In this document: in pieces, positions 2,685-45,274 of the stretch
Numbering within the stretch: position 1 is the first letter of the stretch
Layout of the letters: each line of letters begins with the position of its first letter
NCBI GenBank assembly: GCA_943788175.1
Contig: CALSPG010000003.1
Location: 54,799-118,798 of the forward strand
Reading direction: 5' to 3'
Length of the DNA: 64,000 nt
DNA from: an uncultured bacterium
GTDB taxonomy: Bacteria; Fidelibacterota; Marinisomatia; Marinisomatales; UBA1611
Notes under the pieces: generated by a model
What the model was told of the DNA's origin: nothing
The model's input: the letters and a program-made list of their open reading frames with translations, nothing else
Database searches by the model: none
Made by a program: the position numbers and the translations under genes

Positions 2685-3344
2685 ATGAACATCGTCAATA
2701 AAAATAAGTTCATAAAACAGCACATTGAACTTTATGGAAATGAATTGTTTTTTGATTCACCTTCTACTTTTAGTATAAAAAGCGATTTATTAAATAATAG
2801 TGTTTTAAGTATTTTTGAATCTTCTGTTGAAGGTTGTATGAAATGCGAATTGGGTACCTCAAGAAAAAAAATTGTTTTTGGTAGCGGAGACAAAAATGCT
2901 GATTTGTTAATTGTTGGTGAGGCTCCAAATGAATATGAAGACGAAAAAGGAAGACCATTTGTTGGCAAAGCTGGAAAACTTTTAGATAAAATACTAAAAG
3001 CAATTGGTTTAAGTCGGACAAATAATGTTTACCTCACAAATGTTTTAAAGTGTAAGACACCAAGGAATAGAGATCCATTACTATCTGAAATAAACAACTG
3101 TCATTCTTACTTATTGAAGCAAATCGAAATAATCCAACCAAAAATTATTGTTGCCCTTGGGAAAGTAGCTGGAAAGTCATTATTGAATAAAGACTTATCT
3201 TTAAAAGAATTTAGATCTCAGTTTTACGAGTTTAACTCCATCCCGTTAAAAGTGACTTACCATCCTCAAACGTTATTAAATGACCCTGCTTTTAAAAAAA
3301 ATGCTTGGGAAGATTTTCAGGTTGTGCGTGACTTTATTAATTAA
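2685..3344 (+). CDS. uracil-DNA glycosylase, family 4
   Basis: GEAPNEYEDEKGRPFVGKAGKLLDKIL motif, Cys residues for an Fe-S cluster (CMKC...C...C), and a C-terminal YHPQ motif. Confidence 0.85.
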   Translation: MNIVNKNKFIKQHIELYGNELFFDSPSTFSIKSDLLNNSVLSIFESSVEGCMKCELGTSRKKIVFGSGDKNADLLIVGEAPNEYEDEKGRPFVGKAGKLLDKILKAIGLSRTNNVYLTNVLKCKTPRNRDPLLSEINNCHSYLLKQIEIIQPKIIVALGKVAGKSLLNKDLSLKEFRSQFYEFNSIPLKVTYHPQTLLNDPAFKKNAWEDFQVVRDFIN

Positions 3345-15565: not shown

Positions 15566-15575
15566 GTTTATCAAA

Positions 15576-18157: not shown

Positions 18158-18900
18158 TAATTAAAACTTTTATATACATCACAATTATCTCAATCGTTAC
18201 AGCAAATAACGAATTTGGAATATTTGAAGCTGCAAATTCACATTATAATGAAGGTAATTATGGTGATTCAATTGAGCTTTATGAAAAGATTATTTTGGAT
18301 GGTCTTCATAGTAGTGATCTATATTATAATCTCGGAAATGCCTATTATAGACAAGGGTTTGTTGGGCAATCTATTTGGGCATATAACAAAGCAATCTTGC
18401 TTAATCCAAGATTGGGTGATGCAAAGTATAATTTAGAAATAGCAATGGCATCTATGAAAGACCGAATAGTATTACCATCGGAGTTTTTACCTGTTCAAAC
18501 ATATATAAGCATTAAATCAAATTATACTTTTAATGAATGGCTTCTTATTGGAAGTTTAGTTGTTCTATTCACAGTTTGTTTTTTTGTGGCATCAAAATTT
18601 TTTATATTAAGTAATGGAATTGTGCAAAAATCTCTTTTCATGCTTGTTATTTTAATCACCGTATTACATTTGATTTTAATTGACTTATTTTTTGAACAAA
18701 ATACACAGCAACCTGGAATTATTATTTCAAATGAGGTTAATGCATATTCCGGTCCTTTTGTTGGGGAAAACACAATGCTTTTTACTATTAATGAAGGTAC
18801 CAGAGCAAAAATTTATCAAAGGCAAGGAGATTGGATTGAAATAGCTATTATTAATGGCGATAAAGCTTGGGTTCCTTCAAATACTCTTCGAAAACTATGA
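18151..18900 (+). CDS. batE: TPR plus SH3b-domain protein BatE
   Basis: TPR motifs (YYNLGNAYYRQG, AYNKAILLNP), two TM segments, and a C-terminal SH3b-like GTRAKIYQRQGDWIEIAIINGDKAWVPSNTL; last gene of the bat order. Confidence 0.65.
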   Translation: MLIIKTFIYITIISIVTANNEFGIFEAANSHYNEGNYGDSIELYEKIILDGLHSSDLYYNLGNAYYRQGFVGQSIWAYNKAILLNPRLGDAKYNLEIAMASMKDRIVLPSEFLPVQTYISIKSNYTFNEWLLIGSLVVLFTVCFFVASKFFILSNGIVQKSLFMLVILITVLHLILIDLFFEQNTQQPGIIISNEVNAYSGPFVGENTMLFTINEGTRAKIYQRQGDWIEIAIINGDKAWVPSNTLRKL

Positions 18901-26882: not shown

Positions 26883-27766
26883 AAGTTGCAGTTATAATGG
26901 GCGGCTCTAGTGCTGAAAAAGATGTCTCAATAAAAACAGGTGAAGCCGTTGTCAAAGCATGTTTAGCAAATGGTTTTGAGGTCTATCCTATAGTTTTTGA
27001 TGATAATTACAAGGATTCCTTCCAGTTGTTAAAAGGCGTTGACATAGTGTTTAATGGGTTGCATGGGACTTTTGGTGAGGATGGAGCAATCCAAAAATGG
27101 TTTGAGCAAAATAATATTTTATTTACAGGGTCGGATTCATTTTCTTCACAAATTTGCATGGATAAAATAAAAAGTAAAAAAATAGTTGGTGAAAATAATA
27201 TTCGCACTCCTGACTGGATTGAAACCAAAAAGGATATGGTCGTCAATCCAGCTTTTTACCCTTGCATAGTCAAGCCAAATGCGCAAGGAAGTACTTTTGG
27301 TCTTTCATTTGTTAAAGAACCGGGTTTGTTGGAGAACGCAATAAATCATAGTCTTGCATTTGATTCAAATGTATTGATTGAGGAATATATTGGGGGTCGG
27401 GAGATTACGGTTGGAGTTTTAGACAATGAAGTATTGCCAATTGTAGAAATTCTCCCAAAGCATAAGCTCTATGATTATGAGTGCAAATACACGCCTGGAA
27501 TGACTAATTATAAATGCCCCATAGAGCTTGATAATAGTTTAAAAGAAAAAATTAATATTGATACAATCAAAATATTTGAATTGCTTGGTTGTCGAGGTTA
27601 TGGAAGAGTCGATTATATAATCGACAATAATAATAATCATTATTTTTTAGAGATAAATACTCTCCCTGGAATGACATCTACTAGCTTGCTTCCGATAGCT
27701 GCAGAAAGCTCAGGCATATCATTTGACGATTTAATAAAAAAGATTATATACTTAGGTCTAAAGTAG
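26879..27766 (+). CDS. ddl: D-alanine--D-alanine ligase
   Basis: N-terminus VAVIMGGSSAEKDVSIKTG, ATP-grasp core, and C-terminal LEINTLPGMTSTSLLP. Confidence 0.92.
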   Translation: MKVAVIMGGSSAEKDVSIKTGEAVVKACLANGFEVYPIVFDDNYKDSFQLLKGVDIVFNGLHGTFGEDGAIQKWFEQNNILFTGSDSFSSQICMDKIKSKKIVGENNIRTPDWIETKKDMVVNPAFYPCIVKPNAQGSTFGLSFVKEPGLLENAINHSLAFDSNVLIEEYIGGREITVGVLDNEVLPIVEILPKHKLYDYECKYTPGMTNYKCPIELDNSLKEKINIDTIKIFELLGCRGYGRVDYIIDNNNNHYFLEINTLPGMTSTSLLPIAAESSGISFDDLIKKIIYLGLK

Positions 27767-27789
27767 TGATAATATGAGGTTGAAAATTT

Positions 27790-27818
27790 TTGACAAAAAT
27801 AATTGTAAATAGTAAATA
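27790..27818 (+). promoter_or_regulatory. candidate sigma70-type promoter for the tRNA-tuf operon
   Basis: TTGACA (27790-27795), a 17-nt spacer, then TAAATA (27813-27818), about 114 nt upstream of tRNA-Thr. This is weak evidence in an AT-rich genome, and FCB-type promoters differ. Confidence 0.25.
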
Positions 27819-27931
27819 CTTATCTGTAAGTTATGAGGCTGTAGGTCTATTTTAATAATAAAATTGTACCGTTTATGTCTTTAAACATAAGAATCAGTGT
27901 AGCTAATTGATAATTATCAAAGAATTGAATT

Positions 27932-28004
27932 GCCACCGTAGCTCAGCTGGTAGAGCAACTGATTTGTAATCAGTCGGTCGGAGGTTCGAGTCCTCTCGGT
28001 GGCT
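27932..28004 (+). tRNA. tRNA-Thr (anticodon UGU)
   Basis: Cloverleaf folded by hand: acceptor GCCACCG/CGGTGGC, D arm GCTC..GAGC, anticodon loop TTTGTAA, T arm GGAGG-TTCGAGT-CCTCT. Confidence 0.93.
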
Positions 28005-28055
28005 CGTAAGTTTGCGTTTTTTTACGGTTTGAATAATGCATGAGTTAAGTTTATC

Positions 28056-28138
28056 GGGGATATGCCCGAGCGGCCAAAGGGAGCAGACTGTAAATCTGCC
28101 GGCGTATGCCTTCGGAGGTTCGAATCCTTCTGTCCCCA
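28056..28138 (+). tRNA. tRNA-Tyr (anticodon GUA), long variable arm
   Basis: Acceptor GGGGATA/TGTCCCC, anticodon loop with GTA (CTGTAAA), long extra arm, T arm GGAGG-TTCGAAT-CCTTC. Confidence 0.92.
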
Positions 28139-28142
28139 CTTT

Positions 28143-28213
28143 GCGAGTGTAGTTCAATGGTAGAACCCCAGCCTTCCAAGCTGGTGATGTGGGTTCGATC
28201 CCCATCACTCGCT
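28143..28213 (+). tRNA. tRNA-Gly (anticodon UCC)
   Basis: Acceptor GCGAGTG/CACTCGC, anticodon stem CCAGC/GCTGG with loop CTTCCAA, T loop TTCGATC. Confidence 0.92.
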
Positions 28214-28219
28214 CTTTCC

Positions 28220-28291
<72 letters not shown>

Positions 28292-28311
28292 CTATGATTC
28301 TTTGGTTTAGT

Positions 28312-29549
28312 GTTTGATTTTTTTAAATAAGGAGTAAAGTAACAATGTCAAAAGCAAAATTTGAAAGAACAAAACCCCATGTAAATATTGGGACTATTGG
28401 TCACGTTGATCATGGTAAAACAACGCTTACTGCTGCTATTACAATGCACCAAGGCGCTCATGGTTTAGCCGAGGTTCGTTCTTTTGATAGTATTGATAAT
28501 GCTCCTGAAGAAAGAGAGCGTGGTATTACGATTCAGACTGCTCATGTAGAATATGAGACTGAGAACCGTCACTATGCTCATGTTGATTGTCCTGGTCACG
28601 CTGATTATATTAAAAATATGATTACCGGCGCAGCGCAAATGGATGGTGGTATTTTAGTTGTATCTGCTGCTGATGGTCCAATGCCTCAGACTAGAGAGCA
28701 CGTTTTATTAGCGAGGCAGGTAAATGTTCCAAGTCTTGTTGTATTTATGAATAAGGTTGATCAAGTAGATGACCCTGAGCTTTTAGAACTTGTTGAGATG
28801 GAATTGCGTGATCTTCTTAATGAGTACGAATTTCCTGGCGATGACACTCCTATTATTATGGGTAGTGCGCTCAATGCCTTGAACGATTCAAATGATGAAG
28901 TTGCTAACAAGTGTATTGTTGACTTGATGGACGCTTGTGATAACTTTATTCCTGAGCCAAAAAGAGACATTGACAAACCTTTTCTTATGCCTGTTGAGGA
29001 TGTTTTTAGTATTACTGGTCGTGGTACTGTCGGTACTGGTCGCATTGAAAGAGGAATCATTAAAGTTGGTGATGAGATAGAAGTCGTCGGTATGGGTACT
29101 CTAACGAAGACAACTGTTACAGGTGTTGAAATGTTTCGTAAGTTATTAGATCAAGGTCAGGCTGGAGATAACGCCGGGCTCTTACTGCGCGGTATTGATA
29201 AAGAAGATTTAAGTAGGGGGCAAGTATTGGCCCTGCCTGGCAGTATTACTCCACACACGAAGTTTAAAGCGAGTGTTTACATTTTGAAAAAAGAAGAGGG
29301 TGGTCGTCATACTCCGTTTTTTAATGGTTACAGACCGCAGTTCTATTTTAGGACAACAGATGTAACGGGAGTGGTTACATTGCCAGAAGGTACTGAAATG
29401 GTTATGCCTGGTGACAATGTAGAATTTGAAGTTTCATTAATTACATCAGTAGCGATGGATAAAGAACTTAGGTTTGCCATTCGTGAAGGTGGGCATACTG
29501 TTGGTGCAGGTGTCGTAACAGAGATTGTTGAGTAGGGTATAATATGGCT
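28312..29549 (+). repeat. 1,238-bp direct repeat, copy 1 (tuf plus 33 nt upstream and 14 nt downstream)
   Basis: Matches 43734..44971 at a constant offset of 15,422 nt, with 6 substitutions found by eye. Confidence 0.95.
28345..29535 (+). CDS. tuf: elongation factor Tu (copy 1, tRNA-linked tufB-like position)
   Basis: [18 protein letters not shown] and NKVD motifs; 396 aa; AAGGAG RBS 9 nt upstream. Confidence 0.98.
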
Positions 29550-29708
29550 GGTAATAGTAAAAGAAATATAATTCAGTTAGAAAGTACTGCGGGAACAGGA
29601 TTTCGATATACTGTGACCAAAAGTAGAAAGCTACACCCTGAGCGTATTGAGTTTAAAAAATATGATCCAGTCATTCGTAAGCATGTGATCTTTAAAGAGA
29701 CTAAATAG
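29544..29708 (+). CDS. rpmG: 50S ribosomal protein L33
   Basis: A 54-aa ORF too short for the supplied track: [54 protein letters not shown]. It has the L33 pattern (..Y.T.KN......KLE.KKY.P..RKH..F.E.K) and the tuf-rpmG-tRNA-Trp-secE context. Confidence 0.85.
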
Positions 29709-29739
29709 GTAGTTAGGGGTGATTTTATAGATATTGCAT

Positions 29740-29812
29740 AGGAGAGTAGCTCAACTGGTAGAGCACCGGTCTCCAACACCGGGGGTTGCGGGTTCGAGCC
29801 CTGCCTCTCCTG
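29740..29812 (+). tRNA. tRNA-Trp (anticodon CCA)
   Basis: Acceptor AGGAGAG/CTCTCCT, anticodon stem CCGGT/ACCGG with loop CTCCAAC, T arm GCGGG-TTCGAGC-CCTGC. Confidence 0.92.
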
Positions 29813-29846
29813 CATAAAATTAATCTAAAAATTTAAATAATATAAA

Positions 29847-30029
29847 ATGATAAAAAAAGTTCAGCAGTTTGGGGTAGATGTTAAGTTTGAGATGAGTAAA
29901 GTTTCATGGCCTGATTGGGATAGTTTAAAAGGGTCTACTTATGTGGTTCTGATTTTGTCTTTAATTTTAACAATTTTTTTATTTATTGTGGATTTGTTTC
30001 TTTCTAAATCTATTTCAACAATTATGTAA
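29847..30029 (+). CDS. secE: preprotein translocase subunit SecE
   Basis: 60 aa with a single C-terminal TM, E.KKV.WP-like motif (EMSKVSWP), immediately upstream of nusG. Confidence 0.85.
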   Translation: MIKKVQQFGVDVKFEMSKVSWPDWDSLKGSTYVVLILSLILTIFLFIVDLFLSKSISTIM

Positions 30030-30033
30030 TTTT

Positions 30034-30567
30034 ATGAATTGGTATACACTAAGAGTTATTTCAGGAAAAGAAAAAAAGATAAGAGAAAGTATTCTCTTTG
30101 ATGTAGAAACAGCAAATTTACAAGATCATATTGAAAATATTTTAGTTCCGACTGAGAATGTTTTGGAAATGCGTGATGGTAAAAAAAAGATTAAAGAGAA
30201 GGTCTTTTTCCCTGGTTATTTACTGATCCATATTGAAATGAATAAAGAAACAAAATATGTTGTAGAGAACGTTAATGGTGTGATTAGTTTTGTTGGTTCT
30301 AGTGGTAAGCCAGAAGCTTTGAAGCCCGATGAAGTGAAAAGATTTCTAGGTGATCATGATGGTGCGGACGGGCCAATTGTGGTTACAGAGGCGGCTCCAT
30401 TCAAGGTAGGCGATTCAGTCAATGTAAAGGATGGTCCTTTTGTAGATTTTTCTGGTGTCGTTCAAGAGGTTAGTCATGAGAAGCAAAAGTTAAAAGTTTC
30501 GGTAAGTATTTTTGGGCGTTCAACTCCAGTTGAGTTAGATTATCTGCAAGTCGCACTTGACAATTAA
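30034..30567 (+). CDS. nusG: transcription termination/antitermination factor NusG
   Basis: The ATG at 30034 gives MNWYTLRVISGKEKK. It has an NGN domain plus a C-terminal KOW (GDSVNVKDGPFVDFSGVVQEV). Confidence 0.93.
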   Translation: MNWYTLRVISGKEKKIRESILFDVETANLQDHIENILVPTENVLEMRDGKKKIKEKVFFPGYLLIHIEMNKETKYVVENVNGVISFVGSSGKPEALKPDEVKRFLGDHDGADGPIVVTEAAPFKVGDSVNVKDGPFVDFSGVVQEVSHEKQKLKVSVSIFGRSTPVELDYLQVALDN

Positions 30568-30582
30568 ATAAGGGTTTTATTG

Positions 30583-31008
30583 ATGGCGAAGAAAATTATA
30601 GGTTTTATTAAGTTGCAAATTCCTGCGGGTCAAGCGAATCCTGCTCCCCCTGTTGGGCCTGCGCTTGGTCAGCAAGGTGTTAATATCATGGATTTTTGCA
30701 AGTCATTTAATGCTAAGACTCAAGATAAGGCCGGTGATGTAATTCCTGTTGAAATTACTGTTTATGCTGATAGGAGTTTTACGTTTGTGACAAAAACTCC
30801 CCCCGCTTCAAGACTGATTTTAAAATCGGCTAAGTTAAGTAAAGGTTCTAGTGAGCCTAATAAAGAAAAAGTCGGGGCTATAAGTGAGTCTGAATTAGAA
30901 AAAATTGCCGGAGTTAAAATGGCTGATTTAAATGCTAATTCTGTTGAACAAGCCAAAGAAATGATAAGAGGGACTGCTAAGTCTATGGGTATTGAGGTGA
31001 AAGGTTAA
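30583..31008 (+). CDS. rplK: 50S ribosomal protein L11
   Basis: [35 protein letters not shown]; the ATG at 30583 is preferred over the adjacent in-frame TTG at 30580. Confidence 0.97.
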
Positions 31009-31013
31009 ATAAG

Positions 31014-31700
31014 ATGGCTAAAATCAAACAAAAATCAATTGATGAATTTTATGATAAAGAAGTTGTTTACGATTTAAGTGATGCCGTTGAGATTGTGAAA
31101 AAAGTATCTTCTGTCAAATTTGATGAGACAATTGATTTGGCGATAAATCTAAATGTTGATCCGCGTCATGCTGAAGAGAATATTAGAATTAGCACATCTC
31201 TTCCTAATGGCACTGGTAAAAAAGTTGTCTTGTTGGTTCTTGCTCAAGGGCCGAAGGTCCAAGAAGCCTTAGACGCTGGTGCTGATTATTGTGGCAATAA
31301 AGACTATTTAGATAAAATTAAAGCTGGATGGGTTGATGTTGATAAGATTATAGCAACACCTGATATGATGGCTGAACTTGGTAAGCTTGGTAAAATTTTA
31401 GGTCCAAAAGGTTTGATGCCTAATCCAAAAAGTGGTACAGTTACTATGGATGTTGCCAAGGCTGTTTCTGACCAAAAAGCTGGTATGGTTGAGCTTCGTG
31501 TTGAAAAAACAGGTATCGTTCATACTGTTTGCGGAAAAGTTTCATTTGACAGTTCGGCTCTAGTTGAGAATATTTCTGTAATTTATAATTCTTTACTAAA
31601 GTCGAGGCCTCCATCGGTAAAGGGTCAATATTTTGTGAAGATGTCTATGTCTTCGACCATGGGTCCTAGTGTAAAAATAAATATTAATTCTATAGGGTAA
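31014..31700 (+). CDS. rplA: 50S ribosomal protein L1
   Basis: L1 pattern ([35 protein letters not shown]); follows rplK. Confidence 0.96.
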
Positions 31701-31707
31701 ATAAACT

Positions 31708-32232
31708 ATGCCTAATCAAAAAAATATTAAAAATCTTGAGCAGTTAACAGATAAGTTGTCCAAGGCAAAATCTATTTATTTTACAGATTATTTAGGCTTA
31801 AATGTTTCTGACGTTACTGCACTTAGGAAAAAGTTTTTTGAAAAAAATGTTGAATACTTAGTGGTTAAAAATACATTGTTGAAAATTGCTTCGCAAAAAA
31901 ATGATATTAACCTTTCCAGTGATTTGTTTGTTGGATCGACTGCTATTGCGTTGTCATATGATGAGCCTGTTGCAGCTGCAAAGGTAATTAAGGGTTTTCT
32001 TAAGGAGCATGATTTACCAACTGTTAAAGGTCTGGTTTTTGAAGGCGCCTATCATGAAGCTAATCAGTTTGAAAAAATTGCAAATTTACCTAGTAAAGAA
32101 GAGTCTCTTGCGATTCTTGCGATTATGTTAAATAGTCCAATGCAAAATCTTGTGAATGTTCTCAATTCATCAATGGTGAAAGTCGTTAATGTTCTTGAAG
32201 CTGTTAAGAATAATAAAAATATTGAAAATTAA
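31708..32232 (+). CDS. rplJ: 50S ribosomal protein L10
   Basis: Position between rplA and rplL, with L10-like N-terminal region (YFTDYLGLNVSDVTALRKK). Confidence 0.93.
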   Translation: MPNQKNIKNLEQLTDKLSKAKSIYFTDYLGLNVSDVTALRKKFFEKNVEYLVVKNTLLKIASQKNDINLSSDLFVGSTAIALSYDEPVAAAKVIKGFLKEHDLPTVKGLVFEGAYHEANQFEKIANLPSKEESLAILAIMLNSPMQNLVNVLNSSMVKVVNVLEAVKNNKNIEN

Positions 32233-32249
32233 AATAAGGAGTTAATAAA

Positions 32250-32624
32250 ATGGCTGTAAAAAAAGAAGATGTATTAGCATATCTAGAAAATGCGAATATG
32301 ATGGAAGTTTCTGAGCTAATATCTGAAATCGAAGAGAAATTTGGTGTCTCTGCTGCTGCCCCTGTTGCTGTAGCTGCTGCCCCTGCTGGTGATGCTGGCG
32401 GTGATGTTGCGCAAACTGAGTTTGATGTAGTTTTGAAGGCTGCTGGTCAGCAAAAGATAAACGTTATTAAAGCTGTTAGGGCAATTACTGATCTAGGTTT
32501 AAAGGAAGCTAAAGAGTTAGTTGATTCAGCTCCAAAGGCTATTAAAGAGGGTGTCTCTGAATCTGAAGCAAATGAAATCAAGACCCAGCTTGAAGATGCT
32601 GGTGCAGAGGTTGAATTAAAATAA
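32250..32624 (+). CDS. rplL: 50S ribosomal protein L7/L12
   Basis: Ala-rich hinge [17 protein letters not shown] and C-terminal domain [24 protein letters not shown]. Confidence 0.97.
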
Positions 32625-32668
32625 TTTTTTATTTAGCTTTTTTATTAAACATTACATCGGAGGATTAA

Positions 32669-35600
32669 TTGGAATCTTTTAACGTTTCAAAAAACAATAG
32701 GGTTACTTTTACCCATATACAAGAACTATTAGAAATACCTGATTTGCTATCTATTCAAACAAAAGCATATCAGCAATTTTTGCAAGAATATGAAGCTCCT
32801 GAAGCTAGAAAAGATTTAGGTCTGCAAGCAGTCTTGAATAGCGTCTTTCCGATTGAAGATTCTCATAGAAATTATATCCTTGAGTTTAATGCTTACTATT
32901 TAGGACAGCCCAAATATACCGGTGATGAATGCATTGATAGGGGTGTGACCTTTTCAGTGCCGCTTCGTGTTAAACTTTCTCTTCACATTACAGACGAAAG
33001 CAATAAAAATGAGTATGCTCAGAGCATTGAGCAGGATGTTTATTTTGGAAATATACCTTATATGACTGAAAAAGGCACATTTATTATTAATGGTGCCGAA
33101 AGAGTTATTGTTTCTCAATTGCAGCGTTCTCCAGGTGTCTTCTTTGATGAGTCGACCCACCCGAATGGAACTAAATTATTTCAAGCTAGAATTATTCCAG
33201 CTAGGGGTTCGTGGGTTGATTTTACTACTGACATAAATGATTGTCTCTTCGTCATTATTGATCGGAGGAGAAAGTTCCCAGTTACGATGTTACTTCGCGC
33301 TCTTGGTTATTCTTCAAATAGCGATATATGTAAAGCTTTTGGTAATTTAATAACTAAGAAAGTAAAGGGTAAAGGTCTTGAAAAATATATTGGTGCTACT
33401 ATAACTGAGGATGTAATTGATACAAAAACTGGTGAGATATTTTTTGAAAGTGGTACGGAATTATCTGGCGATATAATAGAAAAACTCAAAGAAAATGGTG
33501 TTGATGAAATTAATCTTGTTGATGGTAATAAAGATTTTTCATCTATGTTGCTATTAAATACTATTAGCAAAGACCCTACCCGCGATACTGAAGGTGCACT
33601 TCAAGTTGTTTATCAATTGTTGCGAACTAGTGAGCCGCCTAATCTTGAGACAGCTCAAAAGTTTATTGAACGTATCTTTTTCAGTCCTAAAAAATATGAT
33701 TTAGGTCAGGTTGGGAGATATCGTTTAAATCAACAATTTAATCTTGATGTTCCTGTTGAAGAAACTGTCCTTACCATGGAAGACATTATTCAGGTTCTTG
33801 TCACTCTAATAGATATGAGAAGAGGTGATAGAGGTGTTGATGATATTGATCACTTGGGTAATAGAAGAGTTAAGACTATTGGTGAACAATTAACTAATCA
33901 ATTTAGTATTGCTTTGAGTAGAATGATAAGAACGATTCATGAACGTATGAATCTCAGAGAATCTGAGAGTATTACGCCTCAAGATTTAATCAATTCTAGA
34001 GTTGTGACTACTGTTATTAATACTTTCTTCGGTACTTCTCAGTTATCCCAGTTTGGTGATCAAACAAATCCGCTTGCTGAAATTACTCACAAACGAAGAA
34101 TATCTGCGTTGGGTCCTGGTGGTTTAACCAGGGAAAGAGCTGGTTTTGAAGTTAGGGATGTTCATTATACTCATTATGGGCGATTGTGTCCAATTGAAAC
34201 TCCTGAAGGTCCAAATATTGGTTTAATATCTTCTCTTGCTATGTTCGCTGAAGTCAACAATCACGGTTTTATTGAATCTCCTTACAGGGAGGTTGTAAAG
34301 TCTAAAGGGAAGTCGAGAGTTACTGATAATATCAAATACTTATCTGCAGATGACGAAGATCGTGTTATGGTAGCGCAAGCCAGTACAGAGTTGGATTCTG
34401 AAAAAAACATTACTGAAAAAAACATAAGAACTCGTGTTAAAGGTGATTTTCCAATAGTTGGCCCTGAGAGTGTAGATTATGTAGAGGTTTCCCCAACTCA
34501 GATTTTAAGTGTTGCTGCAGCCTTGATTCCTTTTCTAGATCATGATGATGCTAACAGAGCCCTGATGGGTTCTAATATGCAACGACAAGCTGTTCCTTTA
34601 ATGTATCCTCAGTCACCAATTGTTGGTACTGGAATGGAAAGTCGTGTCGCTAAAGATTCAAGGTCATGTGTTGTTTCTCCTGTTTCTGGGCGTGTTGTTT
34701 ATGTTGATGCAGAAACAATTCATATAAAAAGGAAAGATGTTCAAGATAGTCTAACTCTTTTTGAAGGTGAAGCTATTCATGAGATAAAATTAAAAAAATA
34801 TTTCAGAACAAATCAAAATACAGTTCATAATCAACGACCTCTCGTTACCGAAGGTCAGAAAATTGAAGCTGGAGATGTTGTTGCTGATGGTGCGGCTACA
34901 GAAATGGGTGAGTTGGCTCTTGGTTCAAATGTCCATGTTGCTTATATGGCATGGCGTGGCTATAATTTTGAAGATGCTATCGTTGTAAGCGAGCGTCTAG
35001 TCAAAGATGATACTTTTAGTTCTGTTCACTGTAATGAGATTGAAGTTGAGGTTAGGGATACCAAGCGAGGTCAAGAAGAGCTTACACCTGAAATTCCAAA
35101 TGTAAGTGAAGATGCTACGAAGGATTTAGATGAGGAAGGTATTGTTCGAGAAGGTGCGCGTGTAAAAGAAGGTGACATTCTTATTGGTAAGGTTACCCCT
35201 AAGGGTGAGTCAGACCCAACTCCTGAAGAAAAATTGCTTCGAGCTATTTTTGGTGAAAAAGCTGGTGAGGTAAAAGATGCATCTAAGAGGGCTGAACCAG
35301 GTATTAAAGGTTGCGTGATTCGAACAAAATTATTTGAAAAACAGGCGAAGAGAACAAAAGCAGAAGAGAGAGAGCAGATTCGAGAATATCAGAGGAAAGC
35401 GTCCGAAGATAAGAAAAATTTAAAAATTTCCCGAGATGAAAAGTTATTAGCTTTAATGTTGGATCAAGTTTCTAATGGAATTCGTAGTGTTTCTAGTAAT
35501 AGGACGCTAATTAAAAAGTCTACAAAGCTTACTTCAAAAAGATTGTCAGGTTTTGATTTAGAGAGATTCGCTCAAGATGTAGCTTGGGTTGAGGATACAA

Positions 35601-36448
35601 GGACATGGAACAAAATTTCTAAAGTTTGGCTTTCTTTTAGAAAAGAATGGTCAAGATTAGAAACTCAGCTTGAGAGGCAAGTATTTAAGTTGAAGATTGG
35701 TGACGAACTGCAACCTGGTATTCTTCGAATGGCAAAAGTTTATGTTGCACAAAAGCGTAAGCTTCAAGTTGGTGACAAAATGGCTGGTAGGCACGGTAAT
35801 AAAGGTATTGTTGCGACTATCGTACCTGAGGAAGATATGCCATTTTTAGAAGATGGTACTCCTGTTGATATTGTTTTAAATCCGCTGGGTGTGCCTTCAA
35901 GGATGAATTTAGGCCAGTTATATGAGGCGATGTTGGGCTGGGCTGGTATGGCTACTGGTAATAAATATTCTACTCCAGTTTTTAACGGTGCTTCGCCTGA
36001 ACAGGTATTAAATGAGTTGAATAGTGCTGGCTTGCCTATTACAGGCAAAACTAAGCTTATTGATGGTGTCACTGGTGAAGCATTTGATAATCCTGTTACT
36101 GTGGGTGTTTCTTATATTATGAAGCTTAGTCATATGGTTGATGATAAAATGCACGCTAGGTCAACAGGTCCGTATTCGCTAATTACTCAGCAGCCATTAG
36201 GAGGGAAAGCTCAGTTTGGTGGACAGCGTTTTGGTGAAATGGAGGTCTGGGCTTTACAAGCATATGGTGCCGCTCATACATTGCATGAGATCTTGACTGT
36301 TAAGTCTGATGATGTAGAAGGTCGGTCTAAAGTTTATAATGCTATTGTAAGAGGCGAGCAAATGCCGGAGTTTTCAGCGCCTGAATCATTTAATGTCATG
36401 ATCAAAGAGCTCCAAGGTCTTTGCATTGATGTAGAACTAGATAATTAA
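32669..36448 (+). CDS. rpoB: DNA-directed RNA polymerase subunit beta
   Basis: 1259 aa; GPNIGLISSLA, NMQRQAVPL and GDKMAGRHGNKG motifs. TTG start 4 nt after GGAGGA. Confidence 0.98.
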   Translation: MESFNVSKNNRVTFTHIQELLEIPDLLSIQTKAYQQFLQEYEAPEARKDLGLQAVLNSVFPIEDSHRNYILEFNAYYLGQPKYTGDECIDRGVTFSVPLRVKLSLHITDESNKNEYAQSIEQDVYFGNIPYMTEKGTFIINGAERVIVSQLQRSPGVFFDESTHPNGTKLFQARIIPARGSWVDFTTDINDCLFVIIDRRRKFPVTMLLRALGYSSNSDICKAFGNLITKKVKGKGLEKYIGATITEDVIDTKTGEIFFESGTELSGDIIEKLKENGVDEINLVDGNKDFSSMLLLNTISKDPTRDTEGALQVVYQLLRTSEPPNLETAQKFIERIFFSPKKYDLGQVGRYRLNQQFNLDVPVEETVLTMEDIIQVLVTLIDMRRGDRGVDDIDHLGNRRVKTIGEQLTNQFSIALSRMIRTIHERMNLRESESITPQDLINSRVVTTVINTFFGTSQLSQFGDQTNPLAEITHKRRISALGPGGLTRERAGFEVRDVHYTHYGRLCPIETPEGPNIGLISSLAMFAEVNNHGFIESPYREVVKSKGKSRVTDNIKYLSADDEDRVMVAQASTELDSEKNITEKNIRTRVKGDFPIVGPESVDYVEVSPTQILSVAAALIPFLDHDDANRALMGSNMQRQAVPLMYPQSPIVGTGMESRVAKDSRSCVVSPVSGRVVYVDAETIHIKRKDVQDSLTLFEGEAIHEIKLKKYFRTNQNTVHNQRPLVTEGQKIEAGDVVADGAATEMGELALGSNVHVAYMAWRGYNFEDAIVVSERLVKDDTFSSVHCNEIEVEVRDTKRGQEELTPEIPNVSEDATKDLDEEGIVREGARVKEGDILIGKVTPKGESDPTPEEKLLRAIFGEKAGEVKDASKRAEPGIKGCVIRTKLFEKQAKRTKAEEREQIREYQRKASEDKKNLKISRDEKLLALMLDQVSNGIRSVSSNRTLIKKSTKLTSKRLSGFDLERFAQDVAWVEDTRTWNKISKVWLSFRKEWSRLETQLERQVFKLKIGDELQPGILRMAKVYVAQKRKLQVGDKMAGRHGNKGIVATIVPEEDMPFLEDGTPVDIVLNPLGVPSRMNLGQLYEAMLGWAGMATGNKYSTPVFNGASPEQVLNELNSAGLPITGKTKLIDGVTGEAFDNPVTVGVSYIMKLSHMVDDKMHARSTGPYSLITQQPLGGKAQFGGQRFGEMEVWALQAYGAAHTLHEILTVKSDDVEGRSKVYNAIVRGEQMPEFSAPESFNVMIKELQGLCIDVELDN

Positions 36449-36459
36449 GAGGAATAAAA

Positions 36460-39400
36460 TTGACTTATATACAATCAAATAACTTAGATACTTCAAAATC
36501 TTACAGTTCGATTACCATTGGTTTGGCCTCTCCTGAGTCTATTTTGGCCAGGTCTTATGGTGAAATTTTAAAGCCCGAGACTATTAATTATAGGTCTTAC
36601 AAGCCTGAAAAGGATGGTCTTTTTTGCGAGAAGATTTTTGGGCCAGTTAAGGACTACGAATGTCACTGCGGTAAATATAAAGGTATTCGCTACCGCGGTA
36701 TTATTTGCGACAGATGTGGTGTCGAGGTTACTAGAAAAAAAGTAAGAAGAGAAAGAATGGGGCATATTACTCTTGCTGTACCGATTGTCCATATTTGGTA
36801 TCTGAGGTCTATTCCAAGTAAGTTGAGTTATTTAGCCGGTAGAAGCACAAAAGAGCTTGAGCGGGTAATTTATTATGAGATGTATATGGTGCTTGATCCT
36901 GCTGATAGTGGTCTTAAGCCTTTTGATCTAATAGAAGAAGAAGATTATCTAGATTACGAGCAAAAATTTGGTTTTTCTGCTGTCAGCGAGGAGCGAAGAG
37001 ATAATGATGATTATTTTTATGCTGCCATGGGTGGGGAAGCAATTAAAGAAATGCTTGCTAGAATAAATATAATGGAGCTCAAAAAAGAGCTTGAAGATAT
37101 TGTTAAAACGTCCAAATCTAAACAAAAAAGGACGGATGCATTAAAAAGGCTGAAGGTTACTTATTCTTTTGTGCCAGACCCAACTAAAAAACGTCTGAAT
37201 AAGCCAGAATGGATGATTGTTTCTATCCTTCCCGTTATTCCTCCGGAGCTTAGGCCATTAGTGCCCTTAGAGGGCGGTAGGTTTGCTGCTAGTGACTTAA
37301 ATGACCTTTATAGAAGGATCATTATTAGGAACAATAGATTAAAGCAGTTGATGGAGATTAAGGCGCCTGATGTAATTTTAAGAAATGAAAAAAGAATGTT
37401 GCAAGAATCAGTAGATGCGCTTTTTGATAATAGTCGAAGAAAGACTGCTATTCGAAGCGGTTCTCGTCGACCTTTAAAATCTCTTTCTGATATGCTCAGA
37501 GGTAAGACTGGTAGATTTAGGCAAAACTTGCTTGGTAAGAGAGTTGATTATTCAGGTAGGTCGGTTATTGTTGTCGGTCCACAGTTAAAATTGCAAGAAT
37601 GTGGATTGCCTAAAAATATGGCTTTAGAGCTGTTTAAACCTCATATGATTCGAGAGTTGATGGGGCGCGGATATACCCAAACTCCTAGGAGCGCAAAATT
37701 GATGATTGAGAATCATGAGCCAGTTGTATACAAAGTTTTAGAATATGTGGTTAAGGATCATCCTGTCATGTTAAATAGGGCTCCAACTCTTCATAGGCTT
37801 GGGATTCAAGCTTTCCAACCGGTGTTGGTTGAAGGTAAGGCTATCCAGTTACATCCACTAGTTTGCTCTGCTTTTAATGCTGATTTTGATGGTGACCAAA
37901 TGGCTGTTCATGTGCCGTTATCTCTTCCTGCTCAGATGGAGGCTAGGATGTTGATGCTCGCAAGTCATAATATTTTGCACCCAGCTAACGGTCAGCCTAT
38001 TGCTGTCCCTTCTCAGGATATGATTCTTGGCTCTTATTATCTGACAAAGTTAAAAAATGGTGATTTAGGCGAAGGTAAACTTTTTGGGTCTATTGATGAG
38101 GTGGTTTTAGCTCATGAAAATAGGGTTGTAGGTATGCATGCCAAAATCTCTGTTAAGCATAAAGGTGTATGGATAAAAGATACTACTGTTGGTAGGGCTA
38201 TTTTCAATTCGATTTTGCCTACTGAAATGGATTTTATTGATGCACTTATTGATAAAAAACTATTAACAGAAGTTGTCAATCAATGTTATCTAGTAGTTGG
38301 TAATTATAAGACAGTAATCTTTTTAGACGACTTAAAAGATTTAGGTTTTAAAATGGCTACACTTAGTGGTCTTTCAATTTCTATTAGTGATGTATTAATA
38401 CCTGGCGAAAAGGATAATATTCTCGCAATTGCTTTTGATAAAGTAAATGATATCAAAAATAAATTTGACAGACATGTTTTAACAGAAGGTGAACGTTATA
38501 ATAAGGTTATCGATGTCTGGACGCACACTACAAACCATGTAGCGCAAGTTATGGAGCAGGAGTTGAGAAAGGACAATCAAGGGTTTAATGCGCTTTCCAT
38601 GATGACAGATTCTGGTGCTAGGGGTAGTAAGGATCAGATAAAGCAGCTAGCGGGAATGCGAGGCCTGATGGCAAAGCCTCAAAAGTCTATGAAAGGTGGT
38701 GTCGGTGAGATTATTGAGTCTCCAATAACATCGAATTTTAAAGAAGGATTGTCTGTTTTTGAGTATTTTATTTCAACTCACGGTGCTAGAAAAGGTCTTG
38801 CTGATACAGCTTTAAAAACTGCTGACGCTGGGTATCTTACTCGGAGGCTAGTCGATGTAGCTCAGGATGTTGTTGTCTATGAAGAGGATTGTGGTACAAT
38901 TAATGGTATTCTTATTTCAGACTTAAAAGAGGGTGAAGAAATTATCGAACCTATTGCTGATCGTATTTTAGGTAGAACTATTCTTGATGATTTTATTGAT
39001 AGAGGTAAGGTTGTTGTGAAGGCTGGTTCTGTTTTATCTGAAAAGGAAGCAGAGTTAATTGGTGATAGCGGTGTTGAGAGTGTTCAGATTAGGTCTGTTC
39101 TGACTTGTGATACTAAAAGAGGTATATGCGCTAAGTGTTATGGTTGGGATTTGTCTCTTCACAAAATTGTTGATATCGGAACATCTGTTGGCATAAGAGC
39201 CGCTCAAAGTATTGGTGAGCCTGGAACTCAGTTAACTCTTCGAACATTTCATATTGGTGGTACTGCTAGTAGAGTCATTGAGCAATCTGAAATGAAAAAT
39301 AAACGCGCTGGAGTTGTTGAATTTTCTGATAATTATGATTATGCTATTACCAGAGATGAGGCTGGTCTGGAGGTTCGTAGATGTATGGTTAGACATGCGA

Positions 39401-40704
39401 AGCTAACTATTACGCAAGGCGAGAAAGAATCAAAAGCTGTTTTTAATGTTCCCTATGGTGCAACAATGTTAGTCGAAGCTGGAGAAAAAATAAAAGCTCA
39501 GACAACGATGTTTCAATGGGATCCCTATACTGATATTATTCTTGCTAGAGAGACTGGTTTGGTTAGTCTGAAAGATTTTGTTGAAGGTGAAACTTATTCT
39601 GTTGAGTCAGTAGAGACTGGGAAAAAGCAAATTGTTGTTATCGAGGCTCGGGATAGAAAGCTAAGTCCTCATTTGGAAATTGTAGATAAAAATGGTGAAA
39701 TAGTAGCGGGTAGTACAATTCTCCCTGTGAAGGCGACGCTAGTTGTCAATGACAAAGAAGAAGTTGAGCGGGGGCAGACTTTGGTAAAAATACCTAAAGA
39801 TATAGGTAAAACTAGAGATATTACTGGTGGCTTGCCTCGAGTAGCTGAATTGTTTGAATCTAGAAAGCCCTCCAATCCGGCTGTGATGACAGAAATTAAT
39901 GGAACTGTTAAGTTTGGTGAAACGCGAAGAGGTATTAGAAAAATTCATGTTGTTGGCTCTGATGGAGATGACAGGTCATATTCTATTCCCTATGGTAAAC
40001 ATGTAATAGTTCATGAAGGTGATTTCATCAATGCTGGTTCTTCTTTATGTGAGGGTGCAATCTCTCCAAGTGACATACTTAGGGTTCTGGGTCCGTCTGC
40101 TGTAGTTGAATATCTAGTAAATGAAATCCAAGAAGTTTACAGGCTTCAAGGTGTAAAAATAAATGACAAGCATATCGAAATTATTGTAAATCAGATGATG
40201 CAAAAAGTTAGTGTAAAAGAAATTGGTGACTCTAGGTTTCTTCAAGAAGATAGGATAAGTAAAAACGATTTTATGATAGAGAATGAAAGATTATCCAAGA
40301 TGGTCGTTGTTACGGTACCTGGCGATACTGGTTTAGATGAAGATGTGATGATTGAAAAATCAGAACTCAATGAGTTAAATAAAGAGGTTAAGGCTGAAGG
40401 AAAAGATGTCGCTAAATATCGGAAAACTATTCCTTCTACATTTGAACCAATACTGATGGGTATTACTAGGGCCTCTCTTAATACCGAAAGTTTTATCAGT
40501 GCCGCTTCTTTTCAAGAAACTACGAGGGTGTTAACAGATGCTGCCACTGCAGGTAAAACTGATTATTTATACGGTTTAAAAGAAAATGTAGCAGTTGGGA
40601 GAATAATTCCGGCTGGAACTGGCACTCCAAAAATAGCGGATGTTCTGGTTGGCGTGGATGGAGTTAACGATTCTTCGATGGATGTTGATGATGCAGTTGC
40701 ATAA
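36460..40704 (+). CDS. rpoC: DNA-directed RNA polymerase subunit beta'
   Basis: 1414 aa; Zn finger [20 protein letters not shown] and catalytic [9 protein letters not shown]. TTG start after an AGAGGAA RBS. Confidence 0.98.
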   Translation: [1414 protein letters not shown]

Positions 40705-40779
40705 TAATTAAAATTAGATGAAAATCATTGTTATGTATTCAAATATTAGATTAACTTACGAGGCTGTGGAGAAATATAT

Positions 40780-41157
40780 ATGCCAACAATAAATCAATTA
40801 GTGCGAAAAGGTAGGAAGAGAATCTTGAAAAAGACCTCTACTCCTGCACTTATGAGTAATCCTCAAAAAAGGGGTGTTTGCACACGCGTATATACTACGA
40901 CACCAAAAAAACCAAATTCAGCATTACGAAAAGTTGCTAGGGTAAGACTTACAAATTCTACAGAAGTAACTGCGTACATTCCTGGCGAGGGCCATAATCT
41001 TCAAGAGCACTCAATTGTGTTGATTGAAGGTGGTCGTGTAAAGGATTTACCTGGTGTGCGTTATCACATTGTTAGGGGTACCTTGGATACTGCTGGTGTT
41101 GACGATAGAAGGACTAGTCGCAGTAGATATGGTGCAAAAAAACCAAAAGCTAGTTAA
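40780..41157 (+). CDS. rpsL: 30S ribosomal protein S12
   Basis: [13 protein letters not shown]...[15 protein letters not shown]. Confidence 0.98.
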
Positions 41158-41163
41158 AATATT

Positions 41164-41628
41164 ATGAGAAGAAGAAGACCAGAAAAAAGAACGATTTTGC
41201 CTGATACGAAGTATGATGATCTTTCTGTCGCAAAATTCATTAATTATATCATGGAAAGTGGAAAAAAAGGTGTAGCTGAAAAGATTTTTTATGGTGCTAT
41301 GGATATTATTCAGAACAAGACTAAAACTGATGGTCTAAAGATATTTAAAAAAGGTATTGAGAATACTTCTCCAAGCGTAGAGGTTAAGTCAAGAAGAATT
41401 GGTGGCGCTACTTACCAAGTCCCAATTGAAGTGCCAAGAAAGAGGGGGTTTTATCTCGCTTCTCTCTGGATTATTAAGGCTTCAAATAATTCATCTGGAA
41501 AGCCTATGGCTGATAAGCTGGCAAGTGAATTAATTGCTGCTGCTAATGGCGATGGTAACGCTATTAAAAAGAAAGAAGATGTTCACAGGATGGCTGATGC
41601 AAATAAAGCATTCGCTCATTTTAGATAA
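41164..41628 (+). CDS. rpsG: 30S ribosomal protein S7
   Basis: S7 pattern (RRIGGATYQVPIEV, ...AFAHFR terminus); str operon order. Confidence 0.97.
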   Translation: MRRRRPEKRTILPDTKYDDLSVAKFINYIMESGKKGVAEKIFYGAMDIIQNKTKTDGLKIFKKGIENTSPSVEVKSRRIGGATYQVPIEVPRKRGFYLASLWIIKASNNSSGKPMADKLASELIAAANGDGNAIKKKEDVHRMADANKAFAHFR

Positions 41629-41648
41629 TTTAAGGTCTGGATTTTAAT

Positions 41649-43739
41649 TTGAAGAGCAATGATTTAAATAGTTTTAGGAATATCGGCATTATGGCTCATA
41701 TAGATGCTGGAAAAACCACCCTTACTGAAAGAATTTTGTATTACACTGGTGTTACGCACCGTATCGGTGAAGTTCACGATGGTGCTGCAACAATGGATTG
41801 GATGGAGCAGGAGCAAGAAAGAGGTATTACCATTACTTCTGCTGCGACTACATGTAACTGGGATGATCATAGGATAAATATTATTGATACGCCAGGGCAC
41901 GTCGATTTCACTGTAGAGGTTGAGAGGTCCTTAAGAGTTTTGGATAGTGCTGTTGCAGTGTTCTGTGCTGTTGGCGGTGTTGAGCCTCAGAGTGAGACAG
42001 TATGGAGGCAGGCTGATAAATATGATGTCCCAAGAATTGCTTTTGTTAATAAAATGGATAGAGTAGGCGCAGATTTCTTCAATGTTATGGAAATGGTTAA
42101 GGATAGGCTTGGAGCGAATCCTCTTCCGGTTGTTATTCCAATTGGTACTGGTGAGACCTTTACCGGTATTATTGATCTTATTTCTATGAAAGCTATTTTG
42201 TACAACGAATCTACGATGGGTTCTAGATTTGAAGAAGCTGATATACCTTCTGATATGGTTGAGGTTGCAGATAAATGGAGAAAGCATTTGATTGAGGAAA
42301 CGGCCTCTTATGATGAAAATCTCTTAGAAAAGTTCGTTTCTGATGAAGATATTTCTGCTGATGAGTTAAAGGCAGCGATAAGAAAGGGCTGTTTAGATAA
42401 TACTTTTATCCCGATGTTTTGTGGTTCTGCTTTTAAGAATAAGGGAGTTCAAAGACTTCTAGATGCTGTAGTTGACTTCTTACCTTCTCCTGTTGATATT
42501 GGTGAAGTTGTAGGTACCGACCCTAGGGATTCTGACCTTGAATTGAAGAGGCAGCCTGATGTAGATGCTCCCTTTAGTGCATTGGCCTTTAAAATAATGA
42601 CTGATCCTTATGTTGGCAAATTAACCTACATGCGTGTTTATTCAGGTAGCTTAGATGCGGGTTCTTATGTCTATAATGCTAATAATGGTAAAAAAGAAAG
42701 AATTAGTAGGGTGCTTTTAATGCATTCAAATAAAAGAGAAGACCGTGACGGGGTTGTTGCTGGAGAGATAGTAGCTGCCGTCGGTTTAAAAAATGTAAAA
42801 ACCGGTAATACTCTATGTAATCAATCTGATCAGATTGTTCTAGAGTCAATGGATTTTCCAGAGCCTGTTGTTGCTGTTTCTGTCGAGCCTGTTAGTAAGG
42901 CTGATCAAGATTCACTGTCAAAATCTTTGGCTAAATTGGGTGAAGAGGATCCCACCTTTAGAGTTTCAACTGATGAGGAAACTGGGCAAACTATTATAGC
43001 TGGTATGGGTGAGCTTCATCTTGAGATTTTGGTTGATAGATTAAAAAGAGAATTTAAGGTTAAGGCTAACATTGGTAAGCCTATCGTAGCTTACAGAGAG
43101 TCTATTACTGAGGCTATTAGTGATGTCGAAACAAAATTTGTCCGCCAGTCTGGTGGTAAGGGTCAATATGGTCATGTCGTTATTAACGTGGAGCCTAACG
43201 AACCTGGTAAAGGGTATCATTTTGAAAATAAAATTACGGGTGGTGTTATTCCTCGAGAATATATTCCCTCAGTTGATAAAGGTATGCAAGAGGCGCTGAA
43301 AAATGGTGTTATTGCTGGATATCCTATTGAAGATATTAGAGTTGAGCTCATATTTGGTTCTTATCATGATGTAGACTCTTCGGAAATGGCATTTAAAATT
43401 GCCGGTTCTATGGCAATTCAATCAGCTTGTAAAAAAGCTAGTCCTAAGTTAATGGAACCAATTATGGCTGTAGAGGTAATCACGCCAGATGAGTACTTAG
43501 GAGATGTTATGGGAGATATTAGTTCTAGGCGCGGTAAAATTGATGGTATGAGCCAAAGAAATGAGGCTCAGGTAATTAAAGCTAATGTTCCATTGAGTAA
43601 TATGTTTGGTTATGTAACTGATTTGAGATCTGTTACTCAAGGTAGAGCGGTCTTTCACATGCAGTTTGCGCACTACAGTATTGTGCCTTCTTCTGTAGAA
43701 GCTGAAATTATGGAAAGAGTTCATGGCAAAGCCGTTTGA
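41649..43739 (+). CDS. fusA: elongation factor G
   Basis: [23 protein letters not shown] and NKMDR motifs; 696 aa. The TTG start is the only start codon that retains the G1 region. Confidence 0.97.
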
Positions 43740-44971
43740 TTTTTTTAAATAAGGAGTAAAGTAACAATGTCAAAAGCAAAATTTGAAAGAACAAAACCCC
43801 ATGTAAACATTGGGACTATTGGTCACGTTGATCATGGTAAAACAACGCTTACTGCTGCTATTACAATGCACCAAGGCGCTCATGGTTTAGCCGAGGTTCG
43901 TTCTTTTGATAGTATTGATAATGCTCCTGAAGAAAGAGAGCGTGGTATTACGATTCAGACTGCTCATGTAGAATATGAGACTGAGAACCGTCACTATGCT
44001 CATGTTGATTGTCCTGGTCACGCTGATTATATTAAAAATATGATTACCGGCGCAGCGCAAATGGATGGTGGTATTTTAGTTGTATCTGCTGCTGATGGTC
44101 CAATGCCTCAGACTAGAGAGCACGTTTTATTAGCGAGGCAGGTAAATGTTCCAAGTCTTGTTGTATTTATGAATAAGGTTGATCAAGTAGATGACCCTGA
44201 GCTTTTAGAACTTGTTGAGATGGAATTGCGTGATCTTCTTAATGAGTACGAATTTCCTGGCGATGACACTCCTATTATTATGGGTAGTGCGCTCAATGCC
44301 TTGAACGATTCAAATGATGAAGTTGCTAACAAGTGCATTGTTGAATTGATGGACGCTTGTGATAACTTTATTCCTGAGCCAAAAAGAGACATTGACAAGC
44401 CTTTTCTTATGCCTGTTGAGGATGTTTTTAGTATTACTGGTCGTGGTACTGTCGGTACTGGTCGCATTGAAAGAGGAATCATTAAAGTTGGTGATGAGAT
44501 AGAAGTCGTCGGTATGGGTACTCTAACGAAGACAACTGTTACAGGTGTTGAAATGTTTCGTAAGTTATTAGATCAAGGTCAGGCTGGAGATAACGCCGGG
44601 CTCTTACTGCGCGGTATTGATAAAGAAGATTTAAGTAGGGGGCAAGTATTGGCCCTGCCTGGCAGTATTACTCCACACACGAAGTTTAAAGCGAGTGTTT
44701 ACATTTTGAAAAAAGAAGAGGGTGGTCGTCATACTCCGTTTTTTAATGGTTATAGACCGCAGTTCTATTTTAGGACAACAGATGTAACGGGAGTGGTTAC
44801 ATTGCCAGAAGGTACTGAAATGGTTATGCCTGGTGACAATGTAGAATTTGAAGTTTCATTAATTACATCAGTAGCGATGGATAAAGAACTTAGGTTCGCC
44901 ATTCGTGAAGGTGGGCATACTGTTGGTGCAGGTGTCGTAACAGAGATTGTTGAGTAGGGTATAATATGGCT
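43734..44971 (+). repeat. 1,238-bp direct repeat, copy 2 (tuf plus flanks)
   Basis: Matches 28312..29549. Its left end includes the last codon and stop of fusA (GTT TGA); its right end includes ATG GCT of rpsJ. Confidence 0.95.
43767..44957 (+). CDS. tuf: elongation factor Tu (copy 2, str-operon tufA-like position)
   Basis: 396 aa, differing from copy 1 at one residue (Glu193 vs Asp193) and five synonymous sites. Confidence 0.98.
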
Positions 44972-45274
44972 AACCAGTCAATAAGAATAAGTTTAAGAGC
45001 GTATGACCATATTTTGCTAGATAAGTCTACAGATAAAATTGTAAAAACAGCCAAGTCTACAGGTGCTATCATATCTGGTCCTATTCCTCTTCCTACTAAG
45101 CGTTCTATTTATACAGTTCTTCGTTCGCCTCATGTAGACAAAAAATCCAGAGAGCAATTTCAGACAAAAATTCATAAAAGAATGATTGATATAATTAATT
45201 CTACGCCAAAGACTGTTGAGTCTCTTATGAAGTTAGATCTTCCTGCTGGTGTTGATATTGAGATAAAGGTTTAG
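44966..45274 (+). CDS. rpsJ: 30S ribosomal protein S10
   Basis: [14 protein letters not shown]...SGPIPLPT pattern. Confidence 0.97.

Follow-up and report, generated by a model that had tools for sequence, protein, structure and literature searches.

The closest described counterparts of the genes reported here are the tufA and tufB genes of Salmonella enterica and Escherichia coli, which encode elongation factor Tu (EF-Tu) (Abdulkarim & Hughes 1996; Paulsson et al. 2017, PMC5485169). One copy ends the str operon, and the other follows a cluster of transfer RNA (tRNA) genes for Thr, Tyr, Gly, and Thr. In Salmonella, the two genes of 1,185 nucleotides (nt) differ at 12 sites and undergo gene conversion that is RecA-dependent (a role of RecA known for Salmonella only), is processive, aborts where homology ends, and takes place, in repair-proficient cells, at a rate between roughly 1e-8 and 1e-5 per generation (PMC5485169). 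Concerted evolution of tuf has been reported in 221 species from 29 orders and 6 phyla and was read as the outcome of an ancient duplication, conversion, and differential loss (PMC6053082, citing Lathe & Bork 2001). The gene order tufB-secE-rpoBC-str-S10 has been described as a supercluster (PMC6735719; Brandis 2021, PMC8046335), and the Salmonella tufB terminator overlaps the secE promoter (PMC6735719). Here, we report two near-identical tuf genes in a 64,000-nt stretch of DNA from an uncultured bacterium (contig CALSPG010000003.1, positions 54,799 to 118,798), hereafter referred to as the window and numbered from its own first nucleotide, which we place in Marinimicrobia (SAR406/Neomarinimicrobiota). 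They very probably represent two ancient positional EF-Tu paralogs kept alike by long-running concerted evolution through gene conversion.

The arrangement of this pair is familiar in most respects. As in the enteric bacteria, one copy lies at the end of the str operon and the other after four tRNA genes, a cluster that matches thrU-tyrU-glyT-thrT of E. coli. The copies differ at 6 sites in 1,191 nt, against 12 in 1,185 nt in Salmonella. However, while the Salmonella copies are 762 kb apart and inverted, so that a crossover between them is a viable inversion, those in the window lie 15.4 kb apart as direct repeats, with essential genes between them. Moreover, rpmG stands between tuf and secE, 8 nt after tuf and with no terminator found, where Salmonella has its overlap of terminator and promoter. 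The supercluster (PMC6735719, PMC8046335) shows the same contiguous order and orientation down to secY, with the tuf genes as direct repeats. In contrast to the window, the supercluster of the gammaproteobacterial ancestor has a ribosomal RNA (rRNA) operon upstream of the tufB operon, while here there is none (Rfam, 64-kb window) and ddl is found instead; rpmG and a tRNA-Trp gene are inserted after tuf, and the phylum is Marinimicrobia, in the FCB group. As across bacteria in general (Lathe & Bork 2001; Wang & Chen 2018, PMC6053082), paralogs group by species, the two contexts are conserved, and copies have been lost. Marinimicrobia lie outside the six phyla of PMC6053082, and a full-text literature search recovered no paper linking Marinimicrobia with "elongation factor Tu." This is thus a known kind of tuf pair, newly seen in a phylum for which we found no earlier report. 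A preliminary description of this DNA had stated that most non-proteobacterial lineages keep a single tuf, which is overstated in view of concerted pairs spread over so many orders and phyla.

When the two loci are compared base by base at an offset of 15,422 nt, positions 28312-29549 and 43734-44971 show exactly six mismatches (copy 1/copy 2: 28386 T/C, 28914 T/C, 28923 C/A, 28977 A/G, 29331 C/T, and 29475 T/C), that is, 99.5% identity over 1,238 nt, which cannot have arisen by chance. Five of the changes are synonymous and one is non-synonymous (Nei-Gojobori counts), the sole amino acid difference being Asp193 in copy 1 and Glu193 in copy 2, of which Glu is usual in relatives. Both open reading frames (ORFs) are intact and encode a full-length EF-Tu of 396 residues (NCBIfam TIGR00485, 723 bits for a cut-off of 522.4, whole model covered). 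The flanks are exactly identical from 33 nt before the ATG to 14 nt past the stop codon and are unrelated beyond these limits. Upstream of copy 2, GTTTGA (43734-43739) is the final codon and the stop of fusA, the ORF of which ends at 43739, while the ATGGCT found at 29544 and 44966 forms the first two codons of rpmG and rpsJ, respectively. The preliminary description had given the same coordinates, offset, six substitutions, five synonymous changes plus D193E, and flank limits, all of which our comparison reproduced exactly. A repeat search found the tuf pair to be the only long dispersed repeat in the window. Its parts are as follows:

28312-28344, + strand: shared 33-nt 5′ flank of copy 1, GTTTGATTTTTTTAAATAAGGAGTAAAGTAACA, with an AAGGAG ribosome-binding site; exactly identical to 43734-43766, with the same boundary in 21 population loci.
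28345-29535, + strand: tuf copy 1, in tufB-type position, encoding EF-Tu of 396 residues with D193 (ORF, TIGR00485).
29536-29549, + strand: 14 nt shared downstream of copy 1, made up of an 8-nt spacer and ATGGCT (rpmG codons 1-2) (base-by-base comparison).
43734-43766, + strand: shared 33-nt 5′ flank of copy 2, consisting of the last fusA codon, the stop, and the entire 27-nt fusA-tuf spacer (base-by-base comparison).
43767-44957, + strand: tuf copy 2, in tufA-type position at the end of the str operon, encoding EF-Tu of 396 residues with E193 (ORF, TIGR00485).
44958-44971, + strand: 14 nt shared downstream of copy 2, made up of an 8-nt spacer and ATGGCT (rpsJ codons 1-2) (base-by-base comparison).

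Relatives, given below as L numbers like all retrieved loci, were found by scanning one genome per species with the RpoC N terminus. The closest match of the window, which has a G+C content of 34%, is the metagenome-assembled genome (MAG) MED-G177 (94% identity), and Bacteroidota come next after Marinimicrobia at about 60%. In five further Marinimicrobia with contigs spanning both positions, tuf is present at the same two places, and the copies within each genome are nearly or fully identical (L003, L008, and L017, 100%; L046, 99.9%; L012, 98.4% at the nucleotide level), while tuf genes from different Marinimicrobia share 66-80% nucleotide identity. Paralogs therefore cluster by genome. The synonymous divergence (dS) between the window copies is 0.019, as opposed to 0.98 between the window and L001, the nearest available ortholog and a partial one, and it is saturated to all others; overall, paralogs show a dS of 0-0.07 within genomes and orthologs of 1 or more. 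Copy number in relatives and dS relative to orthologs were among the comparisons proposed in the preliminary description, with the following outcome: five other Marinimicrobia have two copies in the same positions, two (L006 and L015) have one, and the copies of two-copy relatives, at 98.4-100% identity, are not deeply divergent. Identity between paralogs is not confined to the gene. In L003 and L008 it takes in the spacer between fusA and tuf, and in these two as well as in L017 it reaches or enters the start of the next gene. The shared noncoding flank sequence is lineage-specific and wholly different between genomes. Selection at the coding level or on codon usage cannot account for identity in such flanks.

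We infer the molecular mechanism of this homogenization from what is established in Salmonella. Nonreciprocal homologous recombination, RecA-dependent in that model, would repeatedly copy stretches of one tuf onto the other, with conversion tracts extending to the end of whatever sequence tolerates replacement. The homogenized sequence fills the whole fusA-tuf spacer, including the ribosome-binding site, as well as the tuf-rpsJ and tuf-rpmG spacers, and stops at constrained neighbors, which are tRNA-Thr and the fusA coding sequence upstream and codon 3 of rpmG and rpsJ downstream. Selection against changes in tRNA-Thr, FusA, L33, or S10 presumably sets these tract boundaries. With the copies arranged as direct repeats on either side of rpoBC, nusG, the L7/L12 cluster, and fusA, reciprocal recombination between them would cause either a lethal deletion of essential genes or an unstable tandem duplication, and only the products of conversion would persist. 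The preliminary description had likewise predicted that unequal crossover would delete or amplify rpoBC, a prediction that is sound in its logic.

The two relatives with a single tuf, both with long and credible contigs, are L006 (a MAG, on a 1.2-Mb contig) and L015 (a single-cell genome), and they have retained the tRNA-locus copy only. Their fusA and rpsJ are adjacent, separated by a spacer of 6-30 nt with no tuf remnant (17294-17306 in L006, 17279-17310 in L015); the str-operon copy has been cleanly removed, as in sampled Bacteroidota. In the latter, fusA abuts rpsJ, and the loci show one tuf at the tRNA locus and no second one in the recovered 10 kb that follow the rpoC match. Among the six two-copy genomes, RpoB identity to the window goes down to 58%. 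In a simple neighbor-joining tree of RpoB (1,238 ungapped columns, no bootstrap support, and hence indicative only), two copies are found in L046, which is the deepest sampled branch, in L017, and in the crown group, with the one-copy L006 and L015 nested among them. Because of this nesting, the most economical reading is that the pair is ancestral to the sampled Marinimicrobia, has been homogenized continuously, and has lost its str copy at least twice.

Of the two-copy relatives, L046 is the most divergent, and two further observations concern it. Its tuf copy 1 is preceded, over the roughly 1.4 kb recovered, by a single detected tRNA gene (Thr-ggt; region 1254-1396) instead of four; the tRNA cluster is variable within the phylum. 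The rpmG match after its tuf (2587-2736) is weak, at 44%.

From many ocean metagenomes, exact-protein look-ups retrieved 21 loci with differences of about 0.2-1% from the window. In all 21, the repeat has the same 33-nt and 14-nt boundaries. All six variant sites segregate in this population, with both alleles of each found at both loci. For example, the tRNA locus carries the D193 haplotype in L082, L083, L085, and L088 and the E193 haplotype in L093, L096, and L101; the str locus carries D193 in L084, L086, L087, and L091 and E193 in many other cases. The 3′ spacer has a G/A polymorphism that likewise occurs at both loci. All four allele combinations are seen for several pairs of sites, a pattern that metagenome assembly could create or blur. 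Such a distribution is what recurrent two-way exchange between the loci, together with recombination among strains, would produce. Locus L081 differs from the window at 4 positions in the 1,191 nt of tuf and at 46 in 3,916 nt of flanks; it had been considered as proof that the six differences are locus-specific, which was withdrawn since each allele is found at both loci across the population.

The preliminary description took the fusA-like GTTTGA upstream of copy 1 as a weak hint that the str copy was the donor, which is not borne out. A comparison of fusA 3′ ends and tRNA-tuf spacers across 12 relatives, in which the L001 contig breaks before the region upstream of copy 1, shows that FusA ends in ...HGKAS followed by TAA or TAG in most of them, in ...HGKAV-TGA in the window, and in ...HGKTG-TGA in L001. 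The unusual FusA terminus in the window fits overwriting from locus 1 no less well than an export of the fusA end to locus 1, and the alleles occur at both loci. The direction of transfer is undecidable from these data, and given the two-way movement of alleles between the loci in the population, it is probably not meaningful to speak of a single donor.

That the second copy is real is indicated by independent assemblies. All four junctions (tRNA-tuf, tuf-rpmG, fusA-tuf, and tuf-rpsJ) were recovered independently in more than 20 assemblies, including the single-cell genome L046, the 541-kb contig L012, and L093 and L099, the naming and frameshifted gene calls of which suggest long-read assemblies. 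Short-read contigs of L001, L002, L007, L011, and L013 break inside or at the edge of tuf, which leaves orphan contigs of 14-15 kb. Such breaks, and mis-threading at tuf, are the behavior expected of a true near-identical repeat. Two contigs, L020 (1-3219, from a distant Marinimicrobia lineage) and L089 (875-4314), join fusA, tuf, and rpmG and so connect what precedes copy 2 with what follows copy 1. L089, at 14,999 bp, is about one 15.4-kb repeat unit long. These joins most likely reflect a cycle in the assembly graph, a collapsed repeat giving the same join. It is improbable that they are real and correspond to the 15.4-kb rpoBC segment being amplified in tandem or excised as a circle through unequal crossover in a fraction of SAR406 cells; if they were, they would represent a natural copy-number polymorphism of rpoBC, the L7/L12 cluster, nusG, and fusA. 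The window itself resolves a tandem repeat in ftsK (see below) where 100-N gaps stand in short-read scaffolds of the same population, an indication that the window comes from a long-read or high-quality assembly with the six differences correctly phased.

Could the duplicate nevertheless be an artifact, with one tuf placed twice or with strain variants assigned arbitrarily to the two copies as the six differences? The material is metagenomic, the six sites are polymorphic at either locus in the population, and the chimeric L020 and L089 contigs show that assemblers do mis-thread this repeat. We find this very unlikely, however, considering the independent recovery of all four junctions, the different appearance of genuine one-copy relatives, in which rpsJ directly follows fusA, and the resolution of the 13-unit ftsK repeat, which speaks for the quality of the assembly, although a mis-phasing of the six differences may still be involved. 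A recent lineage-specific duplication, the copies of which have lacked time to diverge, would agree with a divergence of only 0.5%, with identity running into the flanks, and with the single tuf at the tRNA locus, fusA abutting rpsJ, of the Bacteroidota outgroups and of two Marinimicrobia lineages. Yet the second copy is found exactly between fusA and rpsJ in six genomes spanning the sampled phylum, near-identical to the first in each, for which at least six independent and identically placed recent events would be needed, and the one-copy genomes are nested among two-copy ones. We accord this scenario only a very slight chance. The preliminary description had left recent duplication and ongoing conversion side by side; of the two, conversion stands, with paralogs clustering by genome in six genomes that share the same two contexts, while recent duplication does not, the pair being present both in the deepest branch, L046, and in the crown group.

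Purifying selection and codon-usage bias could, in principle, keep two highly expressed genes alike with no exchange between the loci. tuf is indeed highly expressed and slow-evolving, and the L081 gene differs less from that of the window than its flanks do, but orthologs under the same selection are saturated where paralogs have barely diverged, and the identity also covers noncoding spacers that are wholly different between genomes. The probability of this explanation is close to nil. Several points do weigh against concerted evolution by conversion as we propose it. No conversion event was observed, and the mechanism rests on the analogy with Salmonella. The phasing of the six differences within one genome rests on the assembly and may be incorrect. 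Five short-read scaffolds (loci L083/84, L085/86, L087/88, L096/97, and L100/101) carry 100% identical copies, and such identity, perhaps also that in L003, L008, and L017, may partly come from the assembler writing one consensus twice. Likewise, allele sharing between loci could be inflated by strain mixing during metagenome assembly. The between-species evidence is free of this weakness because copies differing by more than a few percent would assemble separately. Finally, homogenization is neither uniform nor constant, as seen in L012 (copies at 1887-3077 and 17295-18485), where flank identity has decayed and the mismatches are clustered, 17 of the 19 differences between its copies, all 17 of them synonymous, falling within 115 nt (gene positions 309-423). 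This patch is either an unconverted island or a segment imported by recombination; comparison of it with relatives singles out neither copy as the odd one, copy 1 resembling L007 and L008 slightly more and copy 2 the window and L006.

The genes around and between the two copies form a contiguous and collinear series, tRNAs-tuf-rpmG-tRNA-Trp-secE-nusG-rplKAJL-rpoBC-rpsL-rpsG-fusA-tuf-rpsJ, located as follows:

27932-28292, + strand: cluster of tRNA-Thr(tgt), tRNA-Tyr, tRNA-Gly(tcc), and tRNA-Thr(ggt), upstream of tuf copy 1 (ARAGORN, Rfam).
29544-29708, + strand: rpmG, ribosomal protein L33 (TIGR01023).
29740-29813, + strand: tRNA-Trp (ARAGORN).
29847-30567, + strand: secE (29847-30029) and nusG (about 30034-30567) (profile match; gene calls of the near-identical locus L082).
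30583-32624, + strand: rplK, rplA, rplJ, and rplL (ORFs; Pfam calls on the near-identical locus L082).
32669-40704, + strand: rpoB (32669-36448) and rpoC (36460-40704) (TIGR02013, TIGR02386).
40780-43739, + strand: str operon genes rpsL, rpsG, and fusA, with the fusA stop codon within the repeat (ORFs, profile matches).
44966-45274, + strand: rpsJ, first gene of the S10 operon (NF001861).

After rpsJ, the S10 and spc genes continue down to secY, according to the gene lists of the near-identical loci L084 and L097. Upstream of the tRNA cluster and tuf copy 1 lie ddl and a hydrolase gene, and Rfam detected no rRNA anywhere in the 64-kb window. A scan limited to sigma-70-type promoters and simple intrinsic terminators found no terminator-like site within 27700-30100, where tuf and rpmG are only 8 nt apart. 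A 5-bp stem followed by a T-run at the end of fusA was rejected as a terminator since chance alone would give 3.3 such sites and 2 were found. Both tuf copies carry at their 3′ end (29515-29543 and 44937-44965) a sigma-70-like match (GTAACA, 17 nt, TATAAT) at 10 of 12 positions. The TATAAT in the shared 3′ flank was rejected as a promoter of rpmG or rpsJ because its -10 box ends one base before the ATG, and the match may simply be an A/T-rich translation-initiation region.

Elsewhere in the window, the ftsK ORF (22324-24786) contains, at 23025-23244, a perfect 15-nt tandem repeat, TTCAACTGAGGAACA, with 13 exact units, which encodes (STEEH)n in the FtsK linker. FtsK has 815 residues in assembly L093 and 820 in the window, and the copy number of the repeat therefore probably varies. 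A second hyper-regular in-frame array within the same 64 kb is a perfect 36-nt tandem repeat of about 10 units (15976-16335, in the ORF 15429-16445), which encodes (QEQQENQDQEGS)n in a TPR-like protein.

These findings add Marinimicrobia/SAR406, and hence the FCB group, to the phyla that keep an ancient tuf pair in concert, an addition of modest scientific value. The single-copy state of sampled Bacteroidota and of two Marinimicrobia lineages is best read as losses of the str-operon copy. In practice, the 1.24-kb repeat breaks or mis-threads short-read SAR406 assemblies at the marker block of rpoBC and ribosomal protein genes, producing orphan contigs and chimeric fusA-tuf-rpmG joins, and these repeat-caused breaks and mis-joins are relevant to estimates of MAG completeness, to phylogenies from marker genes, and to typing this abundant ocean lineage by tuf.

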